Notes: generated from the letters alone by a model not told the origin. A DNA stretch of 64,000 bases from an uncultured Chromatiales bacterium (GCA_964384095.1 CAYLKC010000001.1:1106-65105), one strand, 5' to 3'. Positions 1,942 through 14,534 are shown, numbered from the stretch's first letter. A program made the numbers and translations.

Positions 1942-2772
1942 TCAGGCCGAGCGGCGATGATGCCCGGACGGCCAGCCCCCGTTGGCCATCGACATCTCGA
2001 TGACCTCGACCTCGGCCCGCGTCGGCAGGGCCGGTTTCAGCACCTTCTGTGTCGGACGCGTATGCGCCTGTTTGTGCTTGCGCAGGATCTTTTCTCGCGC
2101 GAAGTCATAGGCATCCTGCCCCAGTATCTCCTTCTCGAGCAGGCGGCGATGTTCGACCAGTTCGGCGCCAAGGCGCTGGTAGGGCTTGCGTGGATCCTGC
2201 CGGTGCGCCGCCTGGATATGCTGGATCAGCGTGCGCAGGAAGGTCGAGAACTCGGTGCGTGACGGTGTGTTGTTGCCCAGCTCGAGGAAGATCGCATCGC
2301 CGCTGACGCTGTGGAAGCGCACCAGGTGGCGGGAGCGCAGGAAGAACAGGCCGAGCGTCAGCAGTGATGCGACACCCAGTGAGATCGTGACCGGCAGCCA
2401 CGGCTGCGCCTGCCAGGGGGTCGATGCGAAGACGCTCAGCGCGACCATGAACAGGGTTGCGACCGCGAGGCCGCCGGCGACATACAGCGAACGCCAGTCG
2501 ATGATCGACAGCAGGTGCGGGGTCGGGTCGAGGAAGCCGAGGTCGAGCCAGTAGCGCCGGGCCTTTTTCAGCGGGCGTTTCTGCTGCACCGAGAGGAAAC
2601 GGCCATCGAAGATCGTGTAATGGGCTGCGTGCAGGCGCAGATGGCTGACCTGGAACAGTTCGATCAGCTCGGAGGGCTTCGGCGCCCTTCCCGCGCTCTC
2701 GGTGCCGAGCTGGATCTCGTCGTCGGCGGGCGGCAGGACAGAGTCCTCCGGTGGAATGCGGGTCGTGGTCAT
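1942..2772 (-). CDS. hypothetical integral membrane protein (>=2 TM helices), last gene of the ATP-grasp operon
   Basis: Start trimmed to the ATG (MTTTRIPPED) preceded by GGAGG; hydrophobic segments LAVATLFMVALSVF and ISLGVASLLTLGLFFL; 48 nt downstream of the FGase-like gene. Confidence 0.55.
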   Translation of the reverse strand: MTTTRIPPEDSVLPPADDEIQLGTESAGRAPKPSELIELFQVSHLRLHAAHYTIFDGRFLSVQQKRPLKKARRYWLDLGFLDPTPHLLSIIDWRSLYVAGGLAVATLFMVALSVFASTPWQAQPWLPVTISLGVASLLTLGLFFLRSRHLVRFHSVSGDAIFLELGNNTPSRTEFSTFLRTLIQHIQAAHRQDPRKPYQRLGAELVEHRRLLEKEILGQDAYDFAREKILRKHKQAHTRPTQKVLKPALPTRAEVEVIEMSMANGGWPSGHHRRSA

Positions 2773-2870
2773 CGGGTTACGGCCTCCGGCACGTTCAAGG
2801 GGATGGCTGGATAGTATCGGCACGTGACGCGCCGATTCCGTGACCGGATTGACAATTCGGAGAGGCGGTC

Positions 2871-3584
2871 TCAGCCGCCGGCCAGCGCGCGTACCGTGTC
2901 GCGCAGGCTGGCGGCGAGCAGCGGGTACAGCCGCCGCGCCGCCCCGCGGGCGGACAACAGGCGCTGGTTGAGTTCGAGTTCGACCCCGGCGTAGCGGAGT
3001 GCGGCAAAGCGGGTTCGCAGGTGACGCGTCAGGCCGTCGCTGACGCCGCGATACGGATAATTGCTGCGCACGATGAACTCGCCGCCGTCGCGCAGCGCCT
3101 GCCGCCAGACCCGGCAGGCCAGCTGCTCGAAACGGCGGGAGGGGTCGTAGAGCAGGGCGATATCGGCGCGGCGTTCGACGCCGTCGAGCACCGGCGTGAA
3201 GCTGTGCACGGCGACATGCAGCACGCGATGGCCGCGCGCGAGCCGGTCTGCGATGGCGGCTTCGACGCGTTGGCGGTGCGGGTGGTACCAGCGCGCGAGG
3301 ATGCGCCGGCGATCGGCATCGGGCAGCGCGCGGGTGATGTCCGAGAACAGCGCGGGGTGATGCGGCGAGCGATTCAGGTCGACGAACAGCCGCGAGGTGT
3401 CTGCATACAGCAGTGGCGCGCGCAGCCGTCGCGCCAGCGCGCGCGCGGCGTCCAGCGCGCCGATGTCATGGCCGCGATGGCTGTCGAGGCGGGCGCGCTG
3501 GCCGCGAAACAGCGGTTGCCAGGGCGACGGGATGCGATTGCCGGCGTGTTCGCAGCTCAGTACCAGCGTGACCGGGGCGGCCAT
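2871..3584 (-). CDS. N-formylglutamate amidohydrolase (FGase/HutG-like) family protein
   Basis: LVLSCEHAGNRIP ... LFVDLNRS motifs typical of PF05013; start set to MAAPVTLV (alternative start at 3644). Confidence 0.75.
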   Translation of the reverse strand: MAAPVTLVLSCEHAGNRIPSPWQPLFRGQRARLDSHRGHDIGALDAARALARRLRAPLLYADTSRLFVDLNRSPHHPALFSDITRALPDADRRRILARWYHPHRQRVEAAIADRLARGHRVLHVAVHSFTPVLDGVERRADIALLYDPSRRFEQLACRVWRQALRDGGEFIVRSNYPYRGVSDGLTRHLRTRFAALRYAGVELELNQRLLSARGAARRLYPLLAASLRDTVRALAGG

Positions 3585-3594
3585 CCGTTGGGGC

Positions 3595-4851
3595 TCAGGC
3601 CTCGAACAGCGTGCCGCCGGCAAGGCAGTCGCAGAGGCGGGCATAGACGGCGGCGATGTCCTCGCGCGCAGGCGCCGGGCCGACGGCTTCGGCGATGCGG
3701 CGGGCGAGTACGCCGCGCCGCAGGTAGAGGTTGTAGACCCGTTGCCGTGACGCGTCGGCGCCGGCCGCAGGCAGGGCCTCGATCAGGTGTTGCCAGAGTT
3801 CGCGCGCGCGACAGCGGCCGCGCTCGGGCCAGCCGAACGCGGCGAGGAAATCGCGATCGCCGATCAGGGCCTGGTCGGCATCGCGCACGGCCGCATCGAA
3901 CAGGGCCTCGAGCGACCGCGTGTCCCAGGCCTGCTGGGCGTCGAGTCCGCACCAGGCCTCTTCGGTCAGCGCGCGCACCAGTTCGATGATCAGCGTCGCG
4001 AGGGCGAGATCGGCGGCCGGGCACTCCTGGGTATCGAGTACGCGGATCTCGATCGCATGGCGATCGAAACGGGCGATCGCGCCGCGCGCATTGACCCATT
4101 CGTGGCGCAAAACGCCTTCCGGGTCGTGGGGCGCGAGATCGTCGTAGATGCGCTGCAGCAGGTGCTGCTCGTAGTCGCGACGCGAGTAGACCGGTTCGGG
4201 GATCACCCGGCCGCTGACCGACGGGACCCGGCGCGCGTTGCTGCGGTAGACCGCGAGGCGGTTGTCGAGGATGCCGGTCGGGGCACCATCCATCAGCGGC
4301 GAACTGGCCGCCAGCGCCGGCAGCAAGGGCAGGACGAGGCGGATCGCCGCGTGCAGGCGCGCGAACTCGGCGTCATTCGCGAACGGCAGATTGATGTGCA
4401 TGCTCTGCAGGTTCGACCAGCCATGTCCGCGGCAATCGAAGATACGATTGAAGGCCTCGTAGATCGGGTTCTGCTCGTGCGGCCACAGCCGCGTCTCGGC
4501 GTGCGGGTCCATCCACGGGTGCATCGCGGTCGGCATCAGGCGTCCGTTCTCCGCCGCGAGCAGGGCGTTGATACGGCCGACATCGTGCTGGAATGCGGAC
4601 TCGAGTCCGGCGAGCGCGGGGGCCGGGCCGTTGGTCTTCAGTTCGATGACATGGAGCGCGAGTTCATTCGACCAGGCCAGCGCGCCGGTCTCGATCTCGT
4701 TGACGTAGTCGCCGGCGACAGCCCTGAGCACGCGATCGGTGACCGGCAGTACCGCCAGCCGATCGCGGTCGACGATCATGTATTCGATCTCGATCCCGGT
4801 GACCTCGAACAGGCGCCAGACCGGCGTTTCCTCAGCGTGGCTTGCGCTCAC
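3595..4851 (-). CDS. GCS2-family carboxylate-amine ligase (YbdK / glutamate-cysteine-ligase-like, COG2170)
   Basis: 418 aa; EIEYMIVD start of the GCS2 fold; HINLPF, EIRVLD motifs; 20-nt overlap with the upstream ATP-grasp gene. Confidence 0.8.
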   Translation of the reverse strand: MSASHAEETPVWRLFEVTGIEIEYMIVDRDRLAVLPVTDRVLRAVAGDYVNEIETGALAWSNELALHVIELKTNGPAPALAGLESAFQHDVGRINALLAAENGRLMPTAMHPWMDPHAETRLWPHEQNPIYEAFNRIFDCRGHGWSNLQSMHINLPFANDAEFARLHAAIRLVLPLLPALAASSPLMDGAPTGILDNRLAVYRSNARRVPSVSGRVIPEPVYSRRDYEQHLLQRIYDDLAPHDPEGVLRHEWVNARGAIARFDRHAIEIRVLDTQECPAADLALATLIIELVRALTEEAWCGLDAQQAWDTRSLEALFDAAVRDADQALIGDRDFLAAFGWPERGRCRARELWQHLIEALPAAGADASRQRVYNLYLRRGVLARRIAEAVGPAPAREDIAAVYARLCDCLAGGTLFEA

Positions 4852-6301
4852 CCTTGCGCTCCTCTATGCGGTCAAGGAATCCCTGCATGATCGTCTCGTA
4901 GAGGGCATTGCGGAGCACGCCGTCCTCGGTGCCAGAGTCGATGTTCGGGTTGTCATTGATCTCGATGACATAGGCCTTGTTGTCGATCTCCTTGACGTCG
5001 ACGCCGTAGAGGCCGTCGCCGATCAGGTTGGCGGCCTTCAGAGCGGTCGCGACCACTTGGGGCGGCGCGGCGGCGAGGTCGACTGCCTCGGCGCGCCCCT
5101 CGCGCGGCTTGCCGTCGCCATGATGCTGCACGATCTGCCAGTGCCTGCCGACCATGAAGTACTTGCAGGCGTAGAGCGGCTTTCGGTTGAACACGCCGAT
5201 GCGCCAGTCGAACGCGGTCGGCATGAAGGCCTGGGCGATGATCAGGTCCGATTTTTCCAGCAGGCGCGTGGCCTCGGCGATGAATTGCGCACGGTCGGCG
5301 ACCTTGACGACACCCTGCGAGAAGGCGCTGTCGGGTTGCTTGAGGATGCAGGGCAGGGTGATCGATGAAGACATTGCCTGCAGGTTGCCGCGATTGACGA
5401 TGGTCGTCTGCGGCGCCGGAATACGATGGCGCGCCAGCAGTTCGGCGAGATAGACCTTGTTGGTGCACTTGAGAATCGAATCGGGGTCGTCGATGACGAC
5501 GAGACCCTCCATCTTGGCGCGGCGCGCGAAGCGGTAGGTGTGGTGATTGACGCCGGTGGTCTCGCGAATGAACAGCGCGTCAAACTCGGCGATGCGGCCG
5601 AAATCATTCTTGGTGATCATCTCGACGTAGAAATCGAGCTGCTGTGCCGCGCGTACGAACTTGCGCAGCGCCTTGCCGTCGGACGGCGGCTGGACTTCGG
5701 ACGGATTGTGCAGGATCGCAAGGTCGTAGCGCTCGGTCTGCTGCGTACGTCGCGGCGAGCGCTTGCCGGCAAAATGCTCGGCCGCGGTCTCGATGACGAA
5801 GGGCTTGTGATCCTCGGGGATGTCGTTGGTCGCGATCGGGCCGATGCTCTGCAACTGCCAGTTGCGATTATGGATGAAGCGTGCGCGCAACAGCGGCGCC
5901 GGAAACAGGTTGTAGAGGCTCAGGCTCAGGCGATCGTGCCGGCGGGCGAGGTTGCGTCCGAAGTAGATGCTGAGCACGAACTCCTCGGACTTGATCGGAG
6001 CGAGGCTCTTCTGGATCAGCTCGAAGAGGTCGTCGGAGACGAAGCGGGTGATCGTCTGCGACTTCATGTCCTGGATCGTGTTGACGCTCGGCAGTGGCTT
6101 GTGGCCGCGGGCCTCGGCCAGCAGCGAGACATAGTAGCCGATGCTCTGGTAACGGTATGAGCGCGTCAGGTTGAAGACCTTGGCGCCGCGCATCTCGCTG
6201 AAGCGCGGATCGGACAGGTAGGCCTTGGCGGCGACGACCTCGGCGCCGTGGGTCTGCAGCGGCCAGTCTTCCGGATTATTGACGACGATCAGTATGGGCA
6301 T
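4832..6301 (-). CDS. RimK-like ATP-grasp ligase with N-terminal RimK-like-ATPgrasp-N (RLAN) domain
   Basis: N-terminal ~160 aa alpha/beta domain followed by an ATP-grasp fold (LVVIDDP, ILKQPDSAFSQGV, YGVDVKEIDNKAYVIEIN). Confidence 0.8.
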   Translation of the reverse strand: MPILIVVNNPEDWPLQTHGAEVVAAKAYLSDPRFSEMRGAKVFNLTRSYRYQSIGYYVSLLAEARGHKPLPSVNTIQDMKSQTITRFVSDDLFELIQKSLAPIKSEEFVLSIYFGRNLARRHDRLSLSLYNLFPAPLLRARFIHNRNWQLQSIGPIATNDIPEDHKPFVIETAAEHFAGKRSPRRTQQTERYDLAILHNPSEVQPPSDGKALRKFVRAAQQLDFYVEMITKNDFGRIAEFDALFIRETTGVNHHTYRFARRAKMEGLVVIDDPDSILKCTNKVYLAELLARHRIPAPQTTIVNRGNLQAMSSSITLPCILKQPDSAFSQGVVKVADRAQFIAEATRLLEKSDLIIAQAFMPTAFDWRIGVFNRKPLYACKYFMVGRHWQIVQHHGDGKPREGRAEAVDLAAAPPQVVATALKAANLIGDGLYGVDVKEIDNKAYVIEINDNPNIDSGTEDGVLRNALYETIMQGFLDRIEERKGERKPR

Positions 6302-7055
6302 GACGCCGGGCAGCCGGTTTCCTCGCCGGCTCTATGATCAGCAGGTTTGCATCGTGGGTCAGGATGCCGAGCAGGATCGCACCGATGACGCGATCGATGT
6401 TGATCTCGTAATACTGGCTCGGCGCCATCGGGTTCGGGTGCAGCGGGTCGATCACCAGCACGGTGCGGTCCTGCGGTTCGTAATCGCCAAGGATCACGAA
6501 GTGACCACTCGGCTTGCCGCGGATGTCGTCGTAGACGGAATCCGGCCCGTACTCGCGCTGGCTCTGATACAGATACGTGGCGCTGAGGCCGGTCAGGATC
6601 GGGATGCCGCGCTTCAGATAGCGGCGGACCAGACCGCTGGTCAGTTCCTCGAACTCGATGCTGCCGCCGAGCTCGAGGAATTCGAGGTAGCCGGCGGTGG
6701 CGAGATCGACCGAGGGCTTCTTGCGGAATTTCATCTGCCGGCGCAGGCGGTCGCGCAGATCAATGCCGGAGTCGATCAGGAACCATGACGGATCGAACAT
6801 CTGCAGGTTGTAGGTGTAGATCCTGGCCCGGTAACCGCGCCGCAGCGCGTGGCAGGCAAGGAATACTGCGAGTGTGCCACCGTGATCGAGGCGCTGGATC
6901 TCGTCGATGACCTGCTCGAGCGGCAGTTCATCGTTGAAATAGCGGTACATCGCGTGCAGACAGGTCGGTCCGCAGGTGGTCTCGTCCGGCTGCGGCAAGA
7001 TGTCGATGGCCATCCCGTGTTCCATGCGCGTCCGGGGTCTCTGTTCTGCGTGCAC
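6276..7055 (-). CDS. papain-like / C39-BtrH-like cysteine peptidase-fold protein
   Basis: Putative catalytic Cys in DETTCGPTCLHAMY; downstream His (GHFVILGDY) and Asp (VIDPLHP); GTG start 1 nt after the upstream stop. Confidence 0.5.
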   Translation of the reverse strand: MHAEQRPRTRMEHGMAIDILPQPDETTCGPTCLHAMYRYFNDELPLEQVIDEIQRLDHGGTLAVFLACHALRRGYRARIYTYNLQMFDPSWFLIDSGIDLRDRLRRQMKFRKKPSVDLATAGYLEFLELGGSIEFEELTSGLVRRYLKRGIPILTGLSATYLYQSQREYGPDSVYDDIRGKPSGHFVILGDYEPQDRTVLVIDPLHPNPMAPSQYYEINIDRVIGAILLGILTHDANLLIIEPARKPAARRHAHTDRRQ

Positions 7056-7056
7056 T

Positions 7057-8289
7057 TTATATCAGATTGGCGTACTTGCCGAGATTTTTCCGCAGCAGCA
7101 GTCTCTGCCGCCGCCACGGATCCTCCCAGGCCAGTCCGGGCCGCATCAAGCCGCGGCAAAGCCGCAGCAGGCCGGCGACGTCGTCGAGGCTGACGAATTC
7201 CGGCGCCGGGCCGTCCGGACCGCGGCAGTCGGGTCCGCCCTCGAAGCCCTGGTTGTGATAATTGCCGAGCGGCACCGAGATTCCGATTGCCGGCACGTTC
7301 CAGGCGGTCATCGCCGTGGCCTCGCAGGCGCCGCCGTCCATGATGCGGCGCTGGTGGGCATCCGGCAGCACGCGGGCGGCGACGGCGGTCAGCAGCGCGA
7401 GCGCGCCGGCATCGAATACCGTGCGGCGATCGCCCAGGCGTACCACCGGTCCCTTGCCGATATCGGCGCCGGGCAAGGTGCGCGAGGCCTCGAGACTGAT
7501 CGCGACCACGGGGCGCCTGCGTTGCTGCAGCCAGCCGGTTTCGAGATGGGCAACCGCGCCGACGAAGCCGACCTCTTCGGCGCGGGTCAGCAGGCCGATA
7601 AAGGCGCGATCGCCCCGGGTCGCGCGGCGCCACAGTGCGCACGCGGTCTCGAGGATCGCGAAGACGCCGACCAGGTCATCGGCGGCGGGGCAGTAGAGCC
7701 GGCCGTTGTCCTGCCAGACCGGCGCGTGAAAGTCGAAGCCGCCGAACAGCGTGCGCGCCGGCGGTCGCCGGCGGCCGTCGAACATCCGGGCCGACAGGCG
7801 CAGATCGGCCTCGTCGATGGCGCGGCCGCTGGCATGGAGGCGCACCTTCGAGAGCGTCCCGCTGCCGAGGCAACCGCTGTCATCGGCGATACGCAGGCTG
7901 GCCCCGGCCAGGCGCCGTAGCGGAGAACCGCCGTGCCAACGGATGCGCAGACGGTCGGGCGCCAGCCAGCGCAGGCCGTGAAAACCGGGGTGATCCATGT
8001 GCGCGATGAACAGCCGCAGCGGTTCCCGGGCGCGCCGGCGCAACAGGGCGAGATATTCACGCTTCGATGCCGCGCCGATGACGAGATTGCCCGCGGGGTC
8101 CTCGAAGTACGGTACGCCGGCGTCATCGAGACGTGCGCCGGCCATGCGTGCGATATGTCGTTCACGAAACGGCGCCGTTGGCAGCGACAGCAATGCGGTC
8201 AGGCGCGTGAGCGCGGTAGCGTTCAGGGGGTCACCTGCTGCCAAGTCCCATGCTGGAGCTGAACATGAAATAGTAGAAGTAGAGCGCAA
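7057..8289 (-). CDS. M42-like (M20/M28/M42 clan) metallopeptidase
   Basis: FIAHMDHPGF, DDLVGVFAILE, RAEEVGFVGAV and MDGGACEATAM resemble M42 metal-binding motifs. Confidence 0.55.
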   Translation of the reverse strand: MRSTSTISCSAPAWDLAAGDPLNATALTRLTALLSLPTAPFRERHIARMAGARLDDAGVPYFEDPAGNLVIGAASKREYLALLRRRAREPLRLFIAHMDHPGFHGLRWLAPDRLRIRWHGGSPLRRLAGASLRIADDSGCLGSGTLSKVRLHASGRAIDEADLRLSARMFDGRRRPPARTLFGGFDFHAPVWQDNGRLYCPAADDLVGVFAILETACALWRRATRGDRAFIGLLTRAEEVGFVGAVAHLETGWLQQRRRPVVAISLEASRTLPGADIGKGPVVRLGDRRTVFDAGALALLTAVAARVLPDAHQRRIMDGGACEATAMTAWNVPAIGISVPLGNYHNQGFEGGPDCRGPDGPAPEFVSLDDVAGLLRLCRGLMRPGLAWEDPWRRQRLLLRKNLGKYANLI

Positions 8290-8470
8290 CTGCGATGACG
8301 ATCACTGCGATCAGCGTGATGGTGCCGGCGCGACCACGGCTGCGTCGCGGCGATGCTACGCGTGAATGCCCGGTTGTTTTGTCATTGCGCATGTCCTGTT
8401 CGTCCAGATATATAGCTTGTCAGCAGGCGTTTTGGCCGTAACGCCGGAATTATAGTATAATGAATCGCCT

Positions 8471-10234
8471 ATGTGCGGATTATGCGGAGAAATCCGCTTC
8501 GATCACAAGGCCCCGTCGCTGGAAGCGCTCGAACGGATGAGCGAGTCGCTTCGACCCCGCGGCCCGGACGGTTCAGGGATGTTCCGGGCCGGCCCGCTTG
8601 CCGTCGGCCATCGTCGCCTGAAGATCATCGACCTGAGCGAACACGCGCAGCAGCCGATGATCGACAGCGAGCTCGGCCTCGGCATCGTCTACAACGGCGC
8701 CATCTACAATTACCGTGAACTCCGCCAGGAGCTCAGCGGTCGCGGTTACCGGTTTTTTTCCAGCGGCGACACCGAAGTCATCCTCAAGGCCTGGGCCGAG
8801 TGGGGCGAGCGTTGTGTCGAGCGCCTGCATGGCATGTTCGCGTTCGCGCTGTGGGAGCGCGACAGCGGCCGCCTGGTGCTGGCGCGCGACCGTCTCGGCA
8901 TCAAACCGCTGTATCTCGCCGAGATCGAGGGCGGACTGCGCTTCGCATCCACGCTGCCGGCGTTGCTGGCGGCCGGCGATGTCGATACCGGCATCGATCC
9001 GGTCGCGCTGCACCATTACATGAGTTTCCATTCCGTCGTGCCGGCGCCGCATACGGTGCTGAACGGCGTGCGCAAGCTGCCGCCGGCGACGATGCTGACG
9101 ATCGAGCCCGATGGACGCCGTGCCGAACGCGTCTACTGGAAGCCGGAATATGGCGGCGGCGAGGGACGCAGTTTCGAGGACTGGCGCGAGGAGCTGGGCG
9201 AGATGCTGAAGCGCGCAGTCAGGCGCCGGCTGGTCGCCGATGTGCCGGTCGGCGTGCTGCTGTCGGGCGGTCTCGATTCCAGCCTGATCGTCGGTCTGCT
9301 GGCCGAAGAGGGGCAGCGGGACATCCATACCTTCTCGGTCGGCTTCGAGAACCTGGCGGAAGAGGACGGCGACGAATTCCGCTATTCCGATATCATCGCC
9401 GAAACCTACGCGACCCGTCACCACCGCATCTTCGTCGATTCGGAGGAATTGCTCGAACAGCTCGAGCCCTGCATCGGCGCGATGTCGGAGCCGATGGTCA
9501 GCCACGATACGATCGGCTTCTACCTGCTGTCGCGCAAGGTCGCCGAGCACGTCAAGGTGGTGCAGAGCGGCCAGGGCGCGGACGAGGTCTTCGGCGGCTA
9601 TCACTGGTATCCGCCGATGCTGGAGAGCCGGCACCCCGTTCCCGACTATGCTCGGGTCTTCTTCGATCGCGACCATCGCGAATATCTCGATGCGGTCGAT
9701 TCGCGCTTTCACGGTGAGGATCACAGCCTGCGCTTCGTCGAGCGTCACTTTGCCGCCCCCGGCGCGCAGCGGGCGATCGATCGCACGCTGCGGCTGGATA
9801 CCACGGTCATGCTGGTCGACGACCCGGTGAAGCGGGTCGACAACATGACGATGGCCTGGGGGCTCGAGGCGCGGGTGCCGTTCCTCGATCATGAACTGGT
9901 CGAGTTTGCGGCGCGCATCCCGGCAGAATACAAGGTTGCGCAGGGCGGCAAGCATGTGCTCAAGGAGCTCGCGCGTCGTCATATCCCCTCCGCGGTCATC
10001 GACCGGCCGAAGGGCTATTTCCCGGTGCCGCAGCTGAAATACATGCAGGGGCCATATCTGGACCTTGCCCGCGAGGTGCTCTCTGATCCGCGCGCCCGCG
10101 CCCGCGGACTGTTCCGCCAGGCCTATGTCGACCGGCTGTTCGCGAATCCGTCCGCAGAGATCACGCCGTTGCGCGGTTCGAAGTTATGGCAGATCGTGTT
10201 GCTCGAGTACTGGCTGCAGGCACAGGGCATCTGA
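8471..10234 (+). CDS. asnO: N-acetylglutaminylglutamine amidotransferase (asparagine-synthetase-like, class II GATase)
   Basis: N-terminal MCGLCGE (catalytic Cys2); PP-loop SGGLDSS; first gene of the asnO-ngg-M42 order. Confidence 0.85.
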   Translation: MCGLCGEIRFDHKAPSLEALERMSESLRPRGPDGSGMFRAGPLAVGHRRLKIIDLSEHAQQPMIDSELGLGIVYNGAIYNYRELRQELSGRGYRFFSSGDTEVILKAWAEWGERCVERLHGMFAFALWERDSGRLVLARDRLGIKPLYLAEIEGGLRFASTLPALLAAGDVDTGIDPVALHHYMSFHSVVPAPHTVLNGVRKLPPATMLTIEPDGRRAERVYWKPEYGGGEGRSFEDWREELGEMLKRAVRRRLVADVPVGVLLSGGLDSSLIVGLLAEEGQRDIHTFSVGFENLAEEDGDEFRYSDIIAETYATRHHRIFVDSEELLEQLEPCIGAMSEPMVSHDTIGFYLLSRKVAEHVKVVQSGQGADEVFGGYHWYPPMLESRHPVPDYARVFFDRDHREYLDAVDSRFHGEDHSLRFVERHFAAPGAQRAIDRTLRLDTTVMLVDDPVKRVDNMTMAWGLEARVPFLDHELVEFAARIPAEYKVAQGGKHVLKELARRHIPSAVIDRPKGYFPVPQLKYMQGPYLDLAREVLSDPRARARGLFRQAYVDRLFANPSAEITPLRGSKLWQIVLLEYWLQAQGI

Positions 10235-10237
10235 GTC

Positions 10238-11977
10238 ATGGCGGAAGGACACCGGATACGCAACCGCCTCGAGCGCGCGCGGTCGCCCTCGCTGAGGCCG
10301 TGGGACAATCAGCCGGGCCGGCATCCGCGGCTCAAGGGCCGCAATGCGATCGTCGATTGCGGCTGGGGACGATTGATCTTCGGCCAGACCTTCGACGAAA
10401 GACGGCTTGCGGAGACCCTGCGCGAGGAACGGGAAGGCAAGCGCGATATCGCGATGTATCTGCGCAATCCTCATGTCGTGATCTCGCAGGCGCCGCAGAG
10501 CGTATTCCTCGATCCCTCGCATACCTACCGCCTGTGGCTGGACCGCTATCGCTCGCCGCGCGCGCGGCCGCGCGGTTTCGTCATCCGCCTGCTGAACAGT
10601 CGAGAGGACGCCGCGGCGGTCGATGCGCTGTACCGGCGCCAGCACATGGTCCCGCCCGGCGCTGATTTCATCTGGGGGCAGCGCGCATCGCGAACGCTGA
10701 CCTGGCTGGTCGCAGAGGAGGCCGCCGCCGGCGGCGGCATCGTCGGCGTGGTCTCCGGCGTCGATCATCACGAGGCCTTCGATGATCCCGAGAACGGCGC
10801 CAGCCTGTGGGCGCTCGCGGTCGACCTGCAATCCGGCTATCCCGGCATCGGCGAGGCGCTGGTGCGCCAGCTCGCCGAGCACTATCTGACCCGCGGCCGC
10901 AGCTTCATGGACCTCTCGGTGATGCATGACAACGAAGCGGCAATCTCGCTGTACGAGAAGCTCGGCTTCGTGCGCGTCCCTGTCTTCTCGCTCAAGCGCA
11001 AGAACATCTACAACGAGCCACTGTATACCGAGAGTGCGCCGGAAGAACGTCTGAATCCCTACGCCGGCATCATCATCGCCGAGGCGCGCCGCCGCGGTAT
11101 CGCTGTCGAGGTGCTCAATGAGCAGGAACAATACTTCACGCTGACCTGCGGCGGCCGCACCGTGGTCTGCCGGGAATCACTGAGCGAGATGACGACGGCG
11201 ATCGCAATGAGCCGCTGCCAGGACAAGTCGGTGACGCACCATGTGCTCGCCGGCGCGGGCCTGCGTGTGCCGGCGCAGATGCGCAGCGATGATGTCGAGG
11301 ATGGGCTGGAATTCCTCGAGCGTCACCGTCGCATCGTCGTCAAGCCCGCCTGCGGCGAGCAGGGCGCCGGTATCAGCGTCGATGTGCGTACGGAGGCGCA
11401 GTTGCGCCGGGCCTGGCGCGATGCCGACCATGCCGGCGGCCGTGTGCTGCTCGAGGCCTTCGTCGAGGGCATGGACCTGCGCATCGTCGTCATCAATTTC
11501 GAGGTCGTCGCCGCGGCGCTGCGCCATCCCGCCAGGATCACCGGGACCGGCAGGCATGACATCCGTGCGCTGATCGACAAGCAGAGTCGCCGCCGCCAGG
11601 TCGCGACCCGCGGCGAGAGCCGCATTCCGCTCGACGACGAGACCCTGCGCTGCCTTGACGACGCCGGATACTCGCTCGACGACATCCTGCCCCGGGACGA
11701 GGACCTGGTCGTGCGCAAGACGGCCAACCTGCACACCGGCGGCACGCTCGAGGATGTGACCGAACGGTTGTCGCCCGCGTTGCGCGAGGTCGCGACCCAG
11801 GCGGCGCGCGCGCTCGACATCCCGGTCGTCGGCCTCGACCTGCTGGTACCGGCAGTCGATGGCGACGACTATGTGCTGATCGAGGCCAACGAGCGTCCCG
11901 GCCTGGCCAACCATGAACCGCAGCCGACTGCGGAGCGCTTCATCGACCTGCTGTTTCCGCATACCGCAACCGTCTGA
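10238..11977 (+). CDS. ngg: N-acetylglutaminylglutamine synthetase (GNAT acetyltransferase + ATP-grasp, cyanophycin-synthetase-like)
   Basis: N-terminal GNAT region (LWALAVDLQSGYPGIGEALV) plus C-terminal ATP-grasp (VVKPACGEQGAGISV ... LIEANERPGL); 3 nt after asnO. Confidence 0.85.
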   Translation: MAEGHRIRNRLERARSPSLRPWDNQPGRHPRLKGRNAIVDCGWGRLIFGQTFDERRLAETLREEREGKRDIAMYLRNPHVVISQAPQSVFLDPSHTYRLWLDRYRSPRARPRGFVIRLLNSREDAAAVDALYRRQHMVPPGADFIWGQRASRTLTWLVAEEAAAGGGIVGVVSGVDHHEAFDDPENGASLWALAVDLQSGYPGIGEALVRQLAEHYLTRGRSFMDLSVMHDNEAAISLYEKLGFVRVPVFSLKRKNIYNEPLYTESAPEERLNPYAGIIIAEARRRGIAVEVLNEQEQYFTLTCGGRTVVCRESLSEMTTAIAMSRCQDKSVTHHVLAGAGLRVPAQMRSDDVEDGLEFLERHRRIVVKPACGEQGAGISVDVRTEAQLRRAWRDADHAGGRVLLEAFVEGMDLRIVVINFEVVAAALRHPARITGTGRHDIRALIDKQSRRRQVATRGESRIPLDDETLRCLDDAGYSLDDILPRDEDLVVRKTANLHTGGTLEDVTERLSPALREVATQAARALDIPVVGLDLLVPAVDGDDYVLIEANERPGLANHEPQPTAERFIDLLFPHTATV

Positions 11978-11991
11978 TAAGCTGGACAGCT

Positions 11992-13101
11992 ATGAAGCTC
12001 TTGTCAGTCGATCACGCCTACGTCCTCGATCTGCTCAAATCGCTGCTGATGACGCCGAGTCCGACCGGCTATACCGACCGCGTCGTACACCTGGCCTGCG
12101 AACAGCTCGAGCAGCTCGGCATCGACTACGAGATCACCCGCCGCGGCGCGATTCGCGCGACGCTGAAGGGCACGGTCTCCAGCCCCGACCGCGCGATCGT
12201 CGCCCACCTGGATACCCTCGGCGCTATGGTCAAGGAGCTGAAACCCGACGGCCGGCTGCGCATCGTGCCGATCGGCCACTGGAATGCCCGCTTCGCCGAG
12301 GGCGCGCGAGTGACGATCTTCAGCGATCTGCGTTCGTATCGCGGCACGATCCTGCCGCTGAAGGCCTCCGGCCATACCTTCGGCCCCGAGATCGACAAGC
12401 AACCGTCGAACTGGGACAACCTCGAGGTCCGCATCGATGAGGTCGCTTATAACCTCAAGGACCTGATGCGGCTCGGCATCCATGTCGGTGACATCATCGC
12501 GATCGACGCCAGCCCGGAGTTCGCCGGCAACGGCTATATCAATTCCCGTCACCTCGACGACAAGGCCGGCGTCGCGATCCTGTTCGGCGTCGCCAAGGCG
12601 ATCGTCGATGCCGGCATCGTGCTGCCGGTCGATTGTCACCTGCTGTTCACGATCTCCGAGGAGGTCGGCTCGGGCGCCTCGCATATCCTGCATCAGGACG
12701 TTGCCGAGATGGTCACTGTCGACAACGGCACGACCGCGCCTGGACAGAATTCGAGTGAATTCGGCGCGACCATTGCAATGGCCGACATGACTGGACCGTT
12801 CGACTATCACCTGACGCACCGGCTGCTGCAGCTGTGCCAGGAGTTCGGCATCGCCCACCAGCGCGATATCTTCCGCTATTACCGTTCCGACAGCGCCGCA
12901 GCGGTGGAGGCCGGCAATGATCTGCGCGTCGCCCTGGTCACCTTCGGCGTCGATGCCTCGCATGGCTATGAGCGCATCCACTGGAATGCCCTGCAGTCGC
13001 TGATCGAACTGCTCACCATCTATGTGCAGAACTATCCGCTGTACGGCCGTGACCGCAACGCGCTCGGTCCGCGGGCCGGTTTTCCGATTCAGCCGAGTTG
13101 A
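11992..13101 (+). CDS. M42-family peptidase of the NAGGN osmoprotectant operon
   Basis: AHLDTLG, DDKAGVAILF, SEEVGSGAS and VDNGTTAPG are M42 motifs; directly follows ngg. Confidence 0.8.
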   Translation: MKLLSVDHAYVLDLLKSLLMTPSPTGYTDRVVHLACEQLEQLGIDYEITRRGAIRATLKGTVSSPDRAIVAHLDTLGAMVKELKPDGRLRIVPIGHWNARFAEGARVTIFSDLRSYRGTILPLKASGHTFGPEIDKQPSNWDNLEVRIDEVAYNLKDLMRLGIHVGDIIAIDASPEFAGNGYINSRHLDDKAGVAILFGVAKAIVDAGIVLPVDCHLLFTISEEVGSGASHILHQDVAEMVTVDNGTTAPGQNSSEFGATIAMADMTGPFDYHLTHRLLQLCQEFGIAHQRDIFRYYRSDSAAAVEAGNDLRVALVTFGVDASHGYERIHWNALQSLIELLTIYVQNYPLYGRDRNALGPRAGFPIQPS

Positions 13102-13131
13102 GCGCCGGACGATAACGTATAATGCCGGCGC
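13102..13131. other. GC hairpin (gcgccgg/ccggcgc) enclosing a perfect TATAAT; possible operon terminator and/or sthA -10 element
   Basis: 7-bp stem; loop contains acgTATAATg; lies between the M42 stop and sthA. Confidence 0.25.
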
Positions 13132-13163
13132 ATCGCCCGGCCGGGCGGGGGGAGGGGCCGTCG

Positions 13164-14534
13164 ATGTCTGAGCATCACTATGACGTAGTCGTGATCGGCA
13201 GCGGGCCGGGCGGCGAGGGCGCCGCGATGAAGGCGTCGAAAGAAGGCCGCCGCGTCGCCGTCGTCGAGGAGTTCGCCGAGGTCGGCGGCAACTGCACCCA
13301 TCGCGGCACGATCCCGAGCAAGACCCTGCGCCAGAATGTCCAGTTCGCGCTCGAGAGCGGCGCCGGCAATGGCCGTCGCTATCCCGATCTGCTGAAGACC
13401 GCGCGCGGCGTCATCCGCAAGCAGGTCGACATGCGCCGGGCCTTCTACGAGCGCAACCAGGTCGATGTCATCCACGGTCGCGCCGCGTTTACCGGAGACC
13501 ACGCCGTCGAGGTTGCGAAGGCGGGTGGTGCGACCGACGTCGTCAGCGCCGATGCCTTCGTCATCGCGACCGGTTCTCGGCCCTATCAGCCGCCGGACGT
13601 CGATTTCAGCCATCCGCGCGTGCTCGACAGCGATTCCGTGCTGGAGCTGGACGACACCCCGCGTTCGATCACGATCTACGGCGCCGGCGTCGTCGGCTGC
13701 GAGTATGCCTCGATCTTCCGCAGCCTCGGGATCAAGGTCAACCTGATCAATACGCGCGGCCAGCTGCTGTCCTTCCTCGATGACGAGATCGTCGACGCCC
13801 TGAGCTATCACCTGCGCGAGCAGGGCGTGCTGATCCGTCACAACGAGGAATACGAGCGCGTCGAGGCCGATGACGGTGGCGTCACGGTATTCCTGAAGTC
13901 GAACAAGGAAATTCGCACGGATTATCTGCTGTGGGCGCAGGGACGTACCGGCAACTCGGACCGGATGGGGCTGGAACAGCTCGGTGTGGTCACCAACGAG
14001 CGTGGCTCGATCGTCGTCAACGATCGTTACCAGTCGAGCCGCGAGCATATCTATGCCGTCGGTGACATCACCGGCTATCCGAATCTCGCCAGCGCTGCCT
14101 ACGACCAGGGTCGTTTCGCCGCCACGCACCTGGTGCGCGGCGTCTGCGAGACCGGCCTGGTCCGCCAGATCCCGACCGGGATCTACACGATTCCGGAGAT
14201 CAGCTCGATCGGCGAGACCGAGCGCGAGCTGACCGCGGCGAAGGTCCCCTATGAGGTCGGCCACTCGCTGTTTCGTCACCTCGCGCGCGCGCAGATCTCG
14301 GGCAAGACCACTGGCATGCTGAAGATCCTGTTCCACCGCGAGACGCTGAAGATCCTCGGCATCCACTGCTTCGGCGCCCAGGCCTCCGAGATCATCCACA
14401 TCGGCCAGGCAGTGATGGCCCGCGAGGACGGCGGCAATTCGCTGATGTATTTCATCAATACCACGTTCAATTATCCGACCATGGCCGAGGCCTACCGCGT
14501 GGCGGCGCTGAACGGCCTCAATCGCGTCAGTTGA
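13164..14534 (+). CDS. sthA: soluble pyridine nucleotide transhydrogenase
   Basis: Full-length match to E. coli SthA/UdhA ([18 protein letters not shown] ... [23 protein letters not shown]); start at the ATG after a GGGGGAGGGG RBS. Confidence 0.9.

Follow-up and report, generated by a model that had tools for sequence, protein, structure and literature searches.

A widespread four-gene amidoligase/peptidase module with an RLAN-ATP-grasp and a GCS2 ligase in an uncultured Chromatiales bacterium

Neighborhoods encoding amidoligases of the RLAN type (PF14401) were reportedly predicted by comparative genomics in 2009 by Iyer, Abhiman, Burroughs and Aravind (Mol Biosyst 5:1636). In the system which they are said to have outlined, RLAN is fused to a RimK-like ATP-grasp domain and encoded beside a GCS2 protein and a papain-like peptidase, and it reportedly remained a prediction without product or experiment. 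The locus described here belongs to this predicted system. It was found in a window of 64,000 nucleotides from an uncultured Chromatiales bacterium (GCA_964384095.1, CAYLKC010000001.1:1106-65105), and all coordinates below are counted from the first letter of this window. Our search of the literature on RLAN/PF14401 and on combinations of RimK and GCS2 with C39 or FGase retrieved no experimental characterization of the system, in line with the preliminary description of the window, according to which no characterized product exists.

Six ORFs were confirmed on the minus strand at 1942-8289, all of them present as described earlier. Starts were assigned according to homology, with the gene calls in the loci L001 (a relative with 97% identity) and L086 also being used. 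The first gene encodes a divergent M42-like metallopeptidase (7057-8244, 395 aa, TTG start at 8244, maximal ORF up to 8289). It is followed by the genes of a C39-like papain-fold cysteine peptidase (6276-7025, 249 aa, ATG at 7025, maximal ORF up to 7055), a ligase combining an N-terminal RLAN domain (about 5738-6301) with a RimK-type ATP-grasp (4832-6301, 489 aa), a GCS2-family carboxylate-amine ligase (3595-4851, 418 aa), an FGase-family zinc amidohydrolase (2871-3584, 237 aa, ATG at 3584, maximal ORF 2871-3644) and a protein with a two-TM hairpin (1942-2772, 276 aa, ATG at 2772, maximal ORF 1942-2823). With maximal ORFs, the first three junctions show the 1-nt gap, 26-nt overlap and 20-nt overlap reported before. 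With the supported starts, the M42-like and C39-like genes are separated by 31 nt, the overlaps of 26 nt (C39-like stop and RLAN start) and 20 nt (RLAN and GCS2) are found again, and GCS2 and FGase lie 10 nt apart. The FGase and membrane protein genes are separated by 98 nt (47 nt if the maximal ORF is taken), and the last two genes are thus not contiguous as had been supposed. In minus-strand orientation, no terminator-like sites were predicted at the junctions, and the core genes, the syntenic M42-like gene and the two-TM gene are probably co-transcribed in this gammaproteobacterial lineage. A sigma-70-like promoter match upstream of the string (8479-8508, minus strand, 9 of 12 hexamer positions matched) is weak, as two such sites were found where 1.0 was expected. 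A possible small ORF of uncertain status, read from the sequence (8231-8392, minus strand, 53 aa, single TM), shares 14 nt with the beginning of the M42-like gene; gene calls for it exist in L086 and L001, its C-terminal half is kept in L001, and the other loci had no counterpart.

Comparison across genomes showed that the unit comprises four tightly coupled genes and not six, i.e., a widespread and self-contained amidoligase/peptidase module. The comparison set consisted of about 90 related loci, and core genes were counted over 84 of them, which represent more than a dozen phyla. The core module occurs in over 600 bacterial species, among them members of the Planctomycetota, Bacteroidota, Verrucomicrobiota, Myxococcota, Desulfobacterota, Nitrospirota, Pseudomonadota and other phyla. 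Cultured carriers include Blastopirellula marina DSM 3645, Thiobacillus thioparus DSM 505, Pontibacter ruber, P. oryzae, Desulfosediminicola flagellatus, Lentisalinibacter salinarum and Planctomicrobium sp. SH527. The C39-like gene was present in 77 and the GCS2 gene in 76 of the 84 loci. FGase, the facultative fourth gene, was found in about two thirds of the loci (directly downstream in 46 of 84, plus 2 divergent ones), and its absence from about a third indicates that it is dispensable for the chemistry. Median identity to the window's proteins amounted to 55% (C39-like), 57% (RLAN-ATP-grasp), 52% (GCS2) and 48% (FGase). Junctions were counted as coupled if they showed an overlap or a gap of at most 30 nt, which across phyla applied to 62/66 C39-like/RLAN, 59/65 RLAN/GCS2 and 31/38 GCS2/FGase junctions. 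Moreover, the pairwise distance matrices of the core proteins were correlated (r 0.50-0.63, reached in 0 of 500 permutations). Hence, co-transcription and translational coupling of the ligases and hydrolases were upheld, whereas the proposed single six-gene operon was not: the four core genes are conserved together and the M42-like and two-TM genes join them only in the nearest clade.

The surroundings of the core are variable. The 141 flanking genes fell into 123 Pfam families, none of them in more than 4, and neither transporters nor regulators nor precursor genes recurred among them. A ribosomal precursor or a carrier protein was rejected as a companion of the core, since no conserved small ORF occurs at the loci. 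Replacement of FGase by an EgtC-like GATase_4 was likewise rejected, as this family was found in 5 loci and is not mutually exclusive with FGase. PADLOC anti-phage models matched 0 of the 6 proteins.

The presence of two amide ligases together with hydrolases, as assigned before, is supported by Pfam. The ORF 4832-6301 matched RLAN (5.2e-46, 156.5 bits vs a cut-off of 25) and RimK (PF08443; 6.4e-7, 29.6 bits vs a gathering cut-off of 21), and E447 and N449 of its EINDNP motif, the E-x-N for Mg/ATP, are invariant among 11 diverse homologues. At the level of NCBIfam models, it scored below the cut-offs of rimK_fam (60 bits vs 143.4), LysX (56.8 vs 275.6) and PRK10446 (20.4 vs 331); RimK chains in the PDB were matched with only about 24-26 bits, and an exact-sequence lookup of the protein returned no record. 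The nearest NCBIfam models (rimK_fam, LysX, MptN, CofF) all represent glutamate ligases, and GCS2, FGase and M42 are glutamate-centered families too. To our knowledge, the characterized RimK-family enzymes (RimK, LysX/ArgX, MptN, CofF and the mammalian RIMKLA/B) all add alpha-linked L-glutamates to a terminal carboxylate. The modeled RLAN domain has a fold like that of the LysX/ArgX/RimK ATP-grasp and carries many invariant basic residues. An origin of RLAN by internal duplication of the ATP-grasp sequence was rejected (hhalign probability 0.2%), and the resemblance of both parts thus stands at fold level only. The second ligase matched GCS2 (PF04107; 6.3e-28, 98.4 bits vs 21) and showed neither YbdK equivalog status (best 56.3 bits vs 176.4, TIGR02050) nor GshA status (16-46 bits vs cut-offs of 249-427); sequence and profile searches of the PDB revealed no relative.

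Concerning the hydrolases, the ORF 6276-7055 matched Peptidase_C39_2 (4.9e-8) and C39 (4.1e-5) above the Pfam cut-off, with the papain-type Gln, Cys, His and Asp residues being present. It had no Pfam match to BtrH_N (PF14399), the only family call of the preliminary description that failed in the HMM search, those of M42, RLAN, RimK, GCS2 and FGase being reproduced. Phytochelatin synthase (C83) was not matched in Pfam either, and the protein is no member of that sequence family. Its fold is closest to enzymes cleaving peptides or isopeptides and to a phytochelatin-synthase homologue, BtrH-like proteins match lower than C39, and matches to solved structures are marginal. A bacteriocin-processing Peptidase C39, which would be fused to or encoded beside an ABC exporter and act on a double-glycine leader peptide, was rejected, as the 249-aa protein stands alone, ABC-transporter families are absent among the 25 most frequent Pfam families of the flanking genes and no small ORF is conserved at the loci. 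FGase (PF05013) was assigned to the ORF 2871-3644 with 5.5e-25 (89.2 bits vs 28.9), and this protein is without equivalog status as HutG, the N-formylglutamate deformylase (18 bits vs 278.75); its best PDB relative is the uncharacterized Atu2144 (2odf, 1.7e-23). In all enzymes, the catalytic residues are intact and invariant among the homologues compared. The equivalog scores for RimK, LysX, YbdK, GshA and HutG lie so far below their cut-offs that specificity is not transferable from these enzymes.

Candidate substrates, a putative order of steps and a possible physiological role may be outlined from the enzyme families involved. The best reading, to which we assign a probability of about one half, is a self-contained system of the cytoplasm for the assembly and trimming of a peptide with glutamate, which would be free or form a tail on a protein. 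The GCS2 protein would activate the gamma-carboxylate of glutamate and join it to an amine, giving gamma-Glu-X, and the RimK-type ATP-grasp would add at least one alpha-linked L-glutamate to the terminal carboxylate, a two-ligase logic that is plausibly glutathione-like. The C39-like thiol enzyme could cleave or transfer the peptide by way of an acyl-enzyme intermediate, and the FGase-like enzyme may take off an N-acylated or C-terminal glutamate. The suggested product is a glutamate-containing oligopeptide that would be retained and turned over in the cytoplasm. Common metabolites would serve as its starting material, since the module is not accompanied by a precursor, a transporter or a regulator.

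Several observations speak against an oligopeptide: two to three hydrolases beside two ligases would fit a reversible protein modification equally well, and a macromolecular partner could lie behind the very high conservation that all three core proteins show across phyla. The loci without FGase and the low equivalog scores also count against this reading. A reversible glutamylation of a housekeeping protein, comparable to that of S6 by RimK or to the tubulin code, is possible, though we hold it only tentatively. GCS2 would then initiate a gamma-linked branch or, in the manner of PafA, attach a tail, with elongation by the RimK-type enzyme and removal by the C39-like and FGase-like proteins. 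The nearest relatives of the ATP-grasp, RimK and LysX, act on protein C-termini, RLAN with its fold and invariant basic residues could recruit a partner, C39 relatives cleave polypeptides, and a housekeeping target needs no precursor gene. Still, no candidate target is encoded nearby at any locus, characterized GCS2 members are generally known to use free amino acids, and FGase members are known only for small N-acyl-glutamates. A reversible branched glutamylation spanning phyla, with GCS2 starting the gamma-linked branch, RLAN-RimK extending it by alpha-linked residues and the C39-like and FGase-like enzymes as erasers, would be directed at a conserved protein or at a cyanophycin-like storage or osmo-buffering polyamide; this idea is rather doubtful, and if it held for a conserved protein, the system would correspond in bacteria to the glutamylation code of tubulin.

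A glutathione-like thiol pathway is unlikely. Here, GCS2 would form gamma-Glu-Cys, the ATP-grasp would add a third residue and the papain-fold enzyme would resemble phytochelatin synthase. Such a route would agree with the GshA/GshB pattern of a GCS2 and an ATP-grasp ligase, with a weak glutathione-synthetase match of the latter (NF009110, 3.4e-10) and with the general knowledge that many of the carrier phyla are without a known thiol cofactor. Set against this are the GshA scores given above, all facing cut-offs above 249, the missing Pfam match to phytochelatin synthase, the strict anaerobes among the carriers, which are many, and the 25 most frequent flanking Pfam families, which hold no reductase or thiol redox partner. 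A thiol-reductase neighbor had been considered for the window and was rejected, the flavoprotein near the cluster being SthA transhydrogenase.

Regarding the outer genes of the string, the ORF 7057-8289 matched Peptidase_M42 (1.7e-11, 44.2 bits vs 23.2) and keeps the metal ligands H82, D190, E223/E224, E252 (Asp to Glu) and H330. The M42-like family is large (3966 matches), and the protein shares only about 21% identity with the M42 member of the NAGGN trio. In L002 and L087, the gene of a secreted acidic protein of 99-103 aa, absent from the window, separates the M42-like gene from the core, as do an opposite-strand cold-shock gene in L093 and three genes in L094; in L089 and L090, the M42-like gene has no core genes in the approximately 9 kb examined downstream. 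The M42-like gene is therefore a syntenic, lineage-specific neighbor outside the functional unit. The membrane protein consists of one two-helix TM hairpin (about aa 94-146) with soluble N- and C-terminal regions, had no Pfam, NCBIfam or PADLOC match and belongs to a rare family (263 representatives at E<=0.001 among 1.84 billion proteins). It is confined to the closest gammaproteobacterial clade: the profile search recovered it in the window and, beyond that, in L001, L002 and L087 alone, and L093, outside that search, has an unannotated 279-aa gene at its position. Its suggested role as an exporter was rejected, as two TM helices without a transporter family or a multi-span architecture were found.

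The divergent neighbor was confirmed as the NAGGN trio at equivalog level (TIGR03104 with 999 bits, TIGR03103 with 838, TIGR03106 with 564), 181 nt from the maximal M42-like ORF or 78 nt if the small ORF is real, and none of the six genes gave a NAGGN equivalog match. Besides the window, this adjacency occurred in 1 of 84 related loci, namely L001, and consequently carries no functional weight, so that the proximity stands and the functional tie does not. Elsewhere, a few loci have genes related to osmotic stress next to the core (L005 with MscS channels and ablA/GNAT genes, 3 loci with Pmp3), and the osmotic link was rejected as anecdotal and without statistical support. A six-gene pathway to a secreted di- or tripeptide, with butirosin-like gamma-glutamyl protection, export by the membrane protein and a tie to NAGGN, would suit the head-to-tail arrangement and these stress-related flanks, but it is very improbable and largely refuted by the comparative data on the two outer genes and NAGGN, the transporter-unlike hairpin and the poor likeness to BtrH.

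Judged by the literature searched, the core is one of the enzyme modules without a known product that are more widely distributed and more strongly conserved. Identification of the product would provide a function for genes that number in the thousands and bear annotations such as "RimK family protein," "carboxylate-amine ligase" or "C39 family peptidase." A peptide metabolite, a cofactor, a storage compound or a modification of proteins could thereby come to light as new, with the target being narrowed from six genes to three or four.

Several known systems share parts of this logic. RimK, acting with RimA/RimB in the poly-alpha-glutamylation of S6, is likewise a RimK-family ATP-grasp encoded with a protease and probably has the addition of glutamate in common with the window's module, which however adds RLAN and GCS2 and has a C39-like peptidase instead of a retropepsin. 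With GshA/GshB and phytochelatin synthase, the module shares two ligases, one for a gamma-carboxylate and one of the ATP-grasp type, as well as a papain fold with a catalytic Cys-His-Asp triad. Cyanophycin synthetase, cyanophycinase and isoaspartyl dipeptidase also combine an ATP-grasp for the backbone with a second, side-chain ligase and cluster synthesis with degradation; in the window's module, by contrast, each ligase activity resides in a protein of its own, from families other than these, with no known polymer, and the likeness is one of logic only. In butirosin biosynthesis (BtrJ/BtrH/BtrG), a papain-fold enzyme for acyl transfer likewise shares a cluster with an ATP-grasp ligase, whereas the window is without BtrH_N, a carrier protein, a gamma-glutamyl cyclotransferase and aminoglycoside genes. 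To the prediction of 2009, the present comparison adds FGase as a partner at about two thirds of the loci, figures for conservation and coupling, the likeness of the RLAN fold to ATP-grasp, and the recognition of the M42-like and two-TM genes as lineage-specific neighbors.

All six consecutive minus-strand ORFs of the preliminary description were recovered at window positions 1942-8289, and five of the six Pfam families assigned there proved right, while BtrH_N was without a match. In 5'-to-3' order, the first ORF matched Peptidase_M42 (1.7e-11), the second Peptidase_C39_2/C39 (4.9e-8 / 4.1e-5), the third RLAN (5.2e-46) together with RimK-type ATP-grasp (6.4e-7), the fourth GCS2 (6.3e-28) and the fifth FGase (5.5e-25); for the sixth, a 2-TM protein, the Pfam search matched no family. 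The NCBIfam models of RimK, LysX, MptN, CofF, YbdK, GshA and HutG match the six-ORF proteins sub-threshold only, and the window proteins are, by sequence, superfamily members with no orthologue of a characterised enzyme among them. Gln12, Cys18, His175 and Asp193 are invariant across the C39-like family.

Gene starts were placed by homologue lengths, alignments and the gene calls of near-identical contigs. Accordingly, the M42-like gene (7057-8244, 395 aa) starts with TTG at 8244, and ATG starts were placed at 7025 for the C39-like gene (6276-7025, 249 aa), at 3584 for the FGase gene (2871-3584, 237 aa) and at 2772 for the 2-TM protein gene (1942-2772, 276 aa), with the ATP-grasp and GCS2 genes lying at 4832-6301 and 3595-4851, all on the minus strand. 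Going from the M42-like gene to the 2-TM protein gene, the first two genes are 31 nt apart, the next two junctions overlap by 26 and 20 nt, and the last two leave gaps of 10 and 98 nt; translational coupling is limited to the middle four of the six genes. A search for terminator-like sites between the six genes found none, a single weak promoter-like site lies upstream of the string, and it is plausible that all six genes share one transcript in this genome. A 53-aa minus-strand ORF (8231-8392), placed between the M42-like gene and the NAGGN promoter region, encodes a single-TM peptide (…TITLIAVIVIAVALYFYYFMFSSSMGLGSR) and shares 14 nt with the M42-like gene at the TTG start of the latter. The C-terminal half of the small ORF is kept in the 97%-identical relative L001 (7897-8070), and the ORF is absent from every other compared locus.

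Homologues of the ATP-grasp protein number more than 8000, and scanning a single genome for each species yielded at least 600 matches; those listed include Planctomycetota, Bacteroidota, Verrucomicrobiota, Myxococcota, Desulfobacterota, Nitrospirota, Pseudomonadota and other phyla, with cultured strains among them. In the 84 fetched loci, the C39-like gene accompanies it in 77 and GCS2 in 76, with most of the absences falling at contig ends, and FGase lies directly 3' of the core in 46 loci, with two further divergent copies. Median identities to the window proteins amount to 55% (C39-like), 57% (RLAN-ATP-grasp), 52% (GCS2) and 48% (FGase). Start/stop overlaps or gaps of at most 30 nt were found at 62 of 66 C39-like/RLAN junctions, at 59 of 65 between RLAN and GCS2, and at 31 of 38 between GCS2 and FGase. 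Moreover, the distance matrices of the three core proteins correlate (r 0.50-0.63), a value reached by none of 500 permutations. The 141 flanking genes match 123 Pfam families, none more than four times (GATase_4 four times; GNAT, Pmp3 and MFS three times each); judged by family content, the flanks are unrelated from locus to locus. Since the core is conserved and coupled and its flanks are unrelated, it represents a self-contained three-to-four-gene module; no dedicated transporter, regulator or precursor was found among the 141 flanking genes.

Some individual neighbourhoods deserve mention. A GATase_4 gene (class-II glutamine amidotransferase-like, EgtC-like) stands beside the core in five loci, sometimes together with FGase (L003 13031-13849; L008 3706-4542; L022 8208-9122; L023 1265-2134; L030 13436-14521). 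Ahead of the three-gene core in a Tectimicrobiota MAG (L005 3689-19028) stand genes for a radical SAM enzyme resembling lysine-2,3-aminomutase, a pair of Ddl-like ATP-grasps, a GNAT and a CitMHS transporter, and genes for MscS-type channels come after it; this setting, reminiscent of osmoadaptation, was met in that single locus.

According to the model, the RLAN domain resembles an ATP-grasp-like domain that is shortened and lacks the catalytic motif; a profile-profile comparison with the ATP-grasp half of the same protein was not significant, so that the likeness is one of fold only. In P. aeruginosa (L091 6905-8494) and Azospirillum brasilense (L092, about 6962-8467), paralogues of RLAN-RimK with 44-47% identity lack C39-like and GCS2 partners; the P. 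aeruginosa gene is flanked by SDR/pagP and an aminotransferase, with glutamate/aspartate ABC transporter genes and ggt nearby.

The M42-like gene, which had been counted into a six-gene unit, behaves like a syntenic neighbour and not like a component of the module, as its linkage to the core is broken in relatives. The gene belongs to a large family (3966 matches) and directly adjoins the core only in the window and in L001, the 97%-identical relative. In L002 (8877-9188) and L087 (10287-10586), a gene for a small acidic secreted protein of 99-103 aa with a signal-peptide-like N-terminus, missing from the window, intervenes; in L093 it is an opposite-strand cold-shock gene, and in L094 three genes. 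In Acidiferrobacteraceae, core genes are absent from the ~9 kb fetched downstream of the M42-like gene, where globin, thioredoxin and Hsp33 genes stand in their place; the homologue in L089 is 61% identical and adjoins a stress-protein neighbourhood of Hsp15 (S4 domain), bacterial globin, thioredoxin/peroxiredoxin and Hsp33 genes (whole region 7893-14208). Because its metal ligands are retained, the M42-like protein is probably an active peptidase. On the opposite strand, as the divergent neighbour of the string, a complete NAGGN osmolyte trio (amidotransferase, synthetase, M42 peptidase; 8471-13101), scoring above equivalog cut-offs, is followed by sthA (13122-14534), encoding a Si-specific transhydrogenase. 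NAGGN genes lie beside the core in one of 84 loci, and the trio appears to be an insertion between sthA and the M42-like gene, since in relatives both are 0-2 genes apart with no trio between them.

The 2-TM protein had been regarded as a candidate exporter. It consists of one hairpin, belongs to no family and bears no sign of export. Among 1.84 billion proteins, its representatives number 263; the loci with a profile-search match are the window, L001, L002 and L087, and L093 carries an unannotated 279-aa gene at its position. Further downstream, plus-strand genes for a NUDIX hydrolase (695-1255) and a YkuD L,D-transpeptidase (1324-1920) follow, the pair or YkuD alone being syntenic in L001, L002, L087 and L093, in some with an inserted methyltransferase/oxidase pair.

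The module holds two ATP-dependent amide ligases and two hydrolase or transferase enzymes, all with intact active sites, which are inherited and translated as one unit. Every component has characterised relatives handling glutamate. RimK, LysX, MptN and CofF either attach L-Glu or work on carboxylates of Glu; in the reaction of GCS2 enzymes, it is the gamma-carboxylate of Glu that becomes activated; the substrate that FGase hydrolyses is an N-acyl-Glu; and the M42 family includes glutamyl aminopeptidases. By this analogy, the proposed role of the module is the cytoplasmic synthesis and turnover of an oligopeptide that contains glutamate in gamma/alpha linkage (probability about 0.5). Of three rival readings, reversible glutamylation of a protein is rather unlikely, and a glutathione/phytochelatin-like thiol pathway is more doubtful still. 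The secreted, butirosin-style product first envisaged is highly improbable.

In the literature searched, no experimental work on the RLAN/RimK, GCS2 and C39-like system was found. The gene association itself was reportedly predicted by Iyer et al. in 2009 and noted in Pfam's entry for RLAN. The window module thus belongs to an already predicted, uncharacterised kind of system, and it matters mainly through its breadth and conservation.
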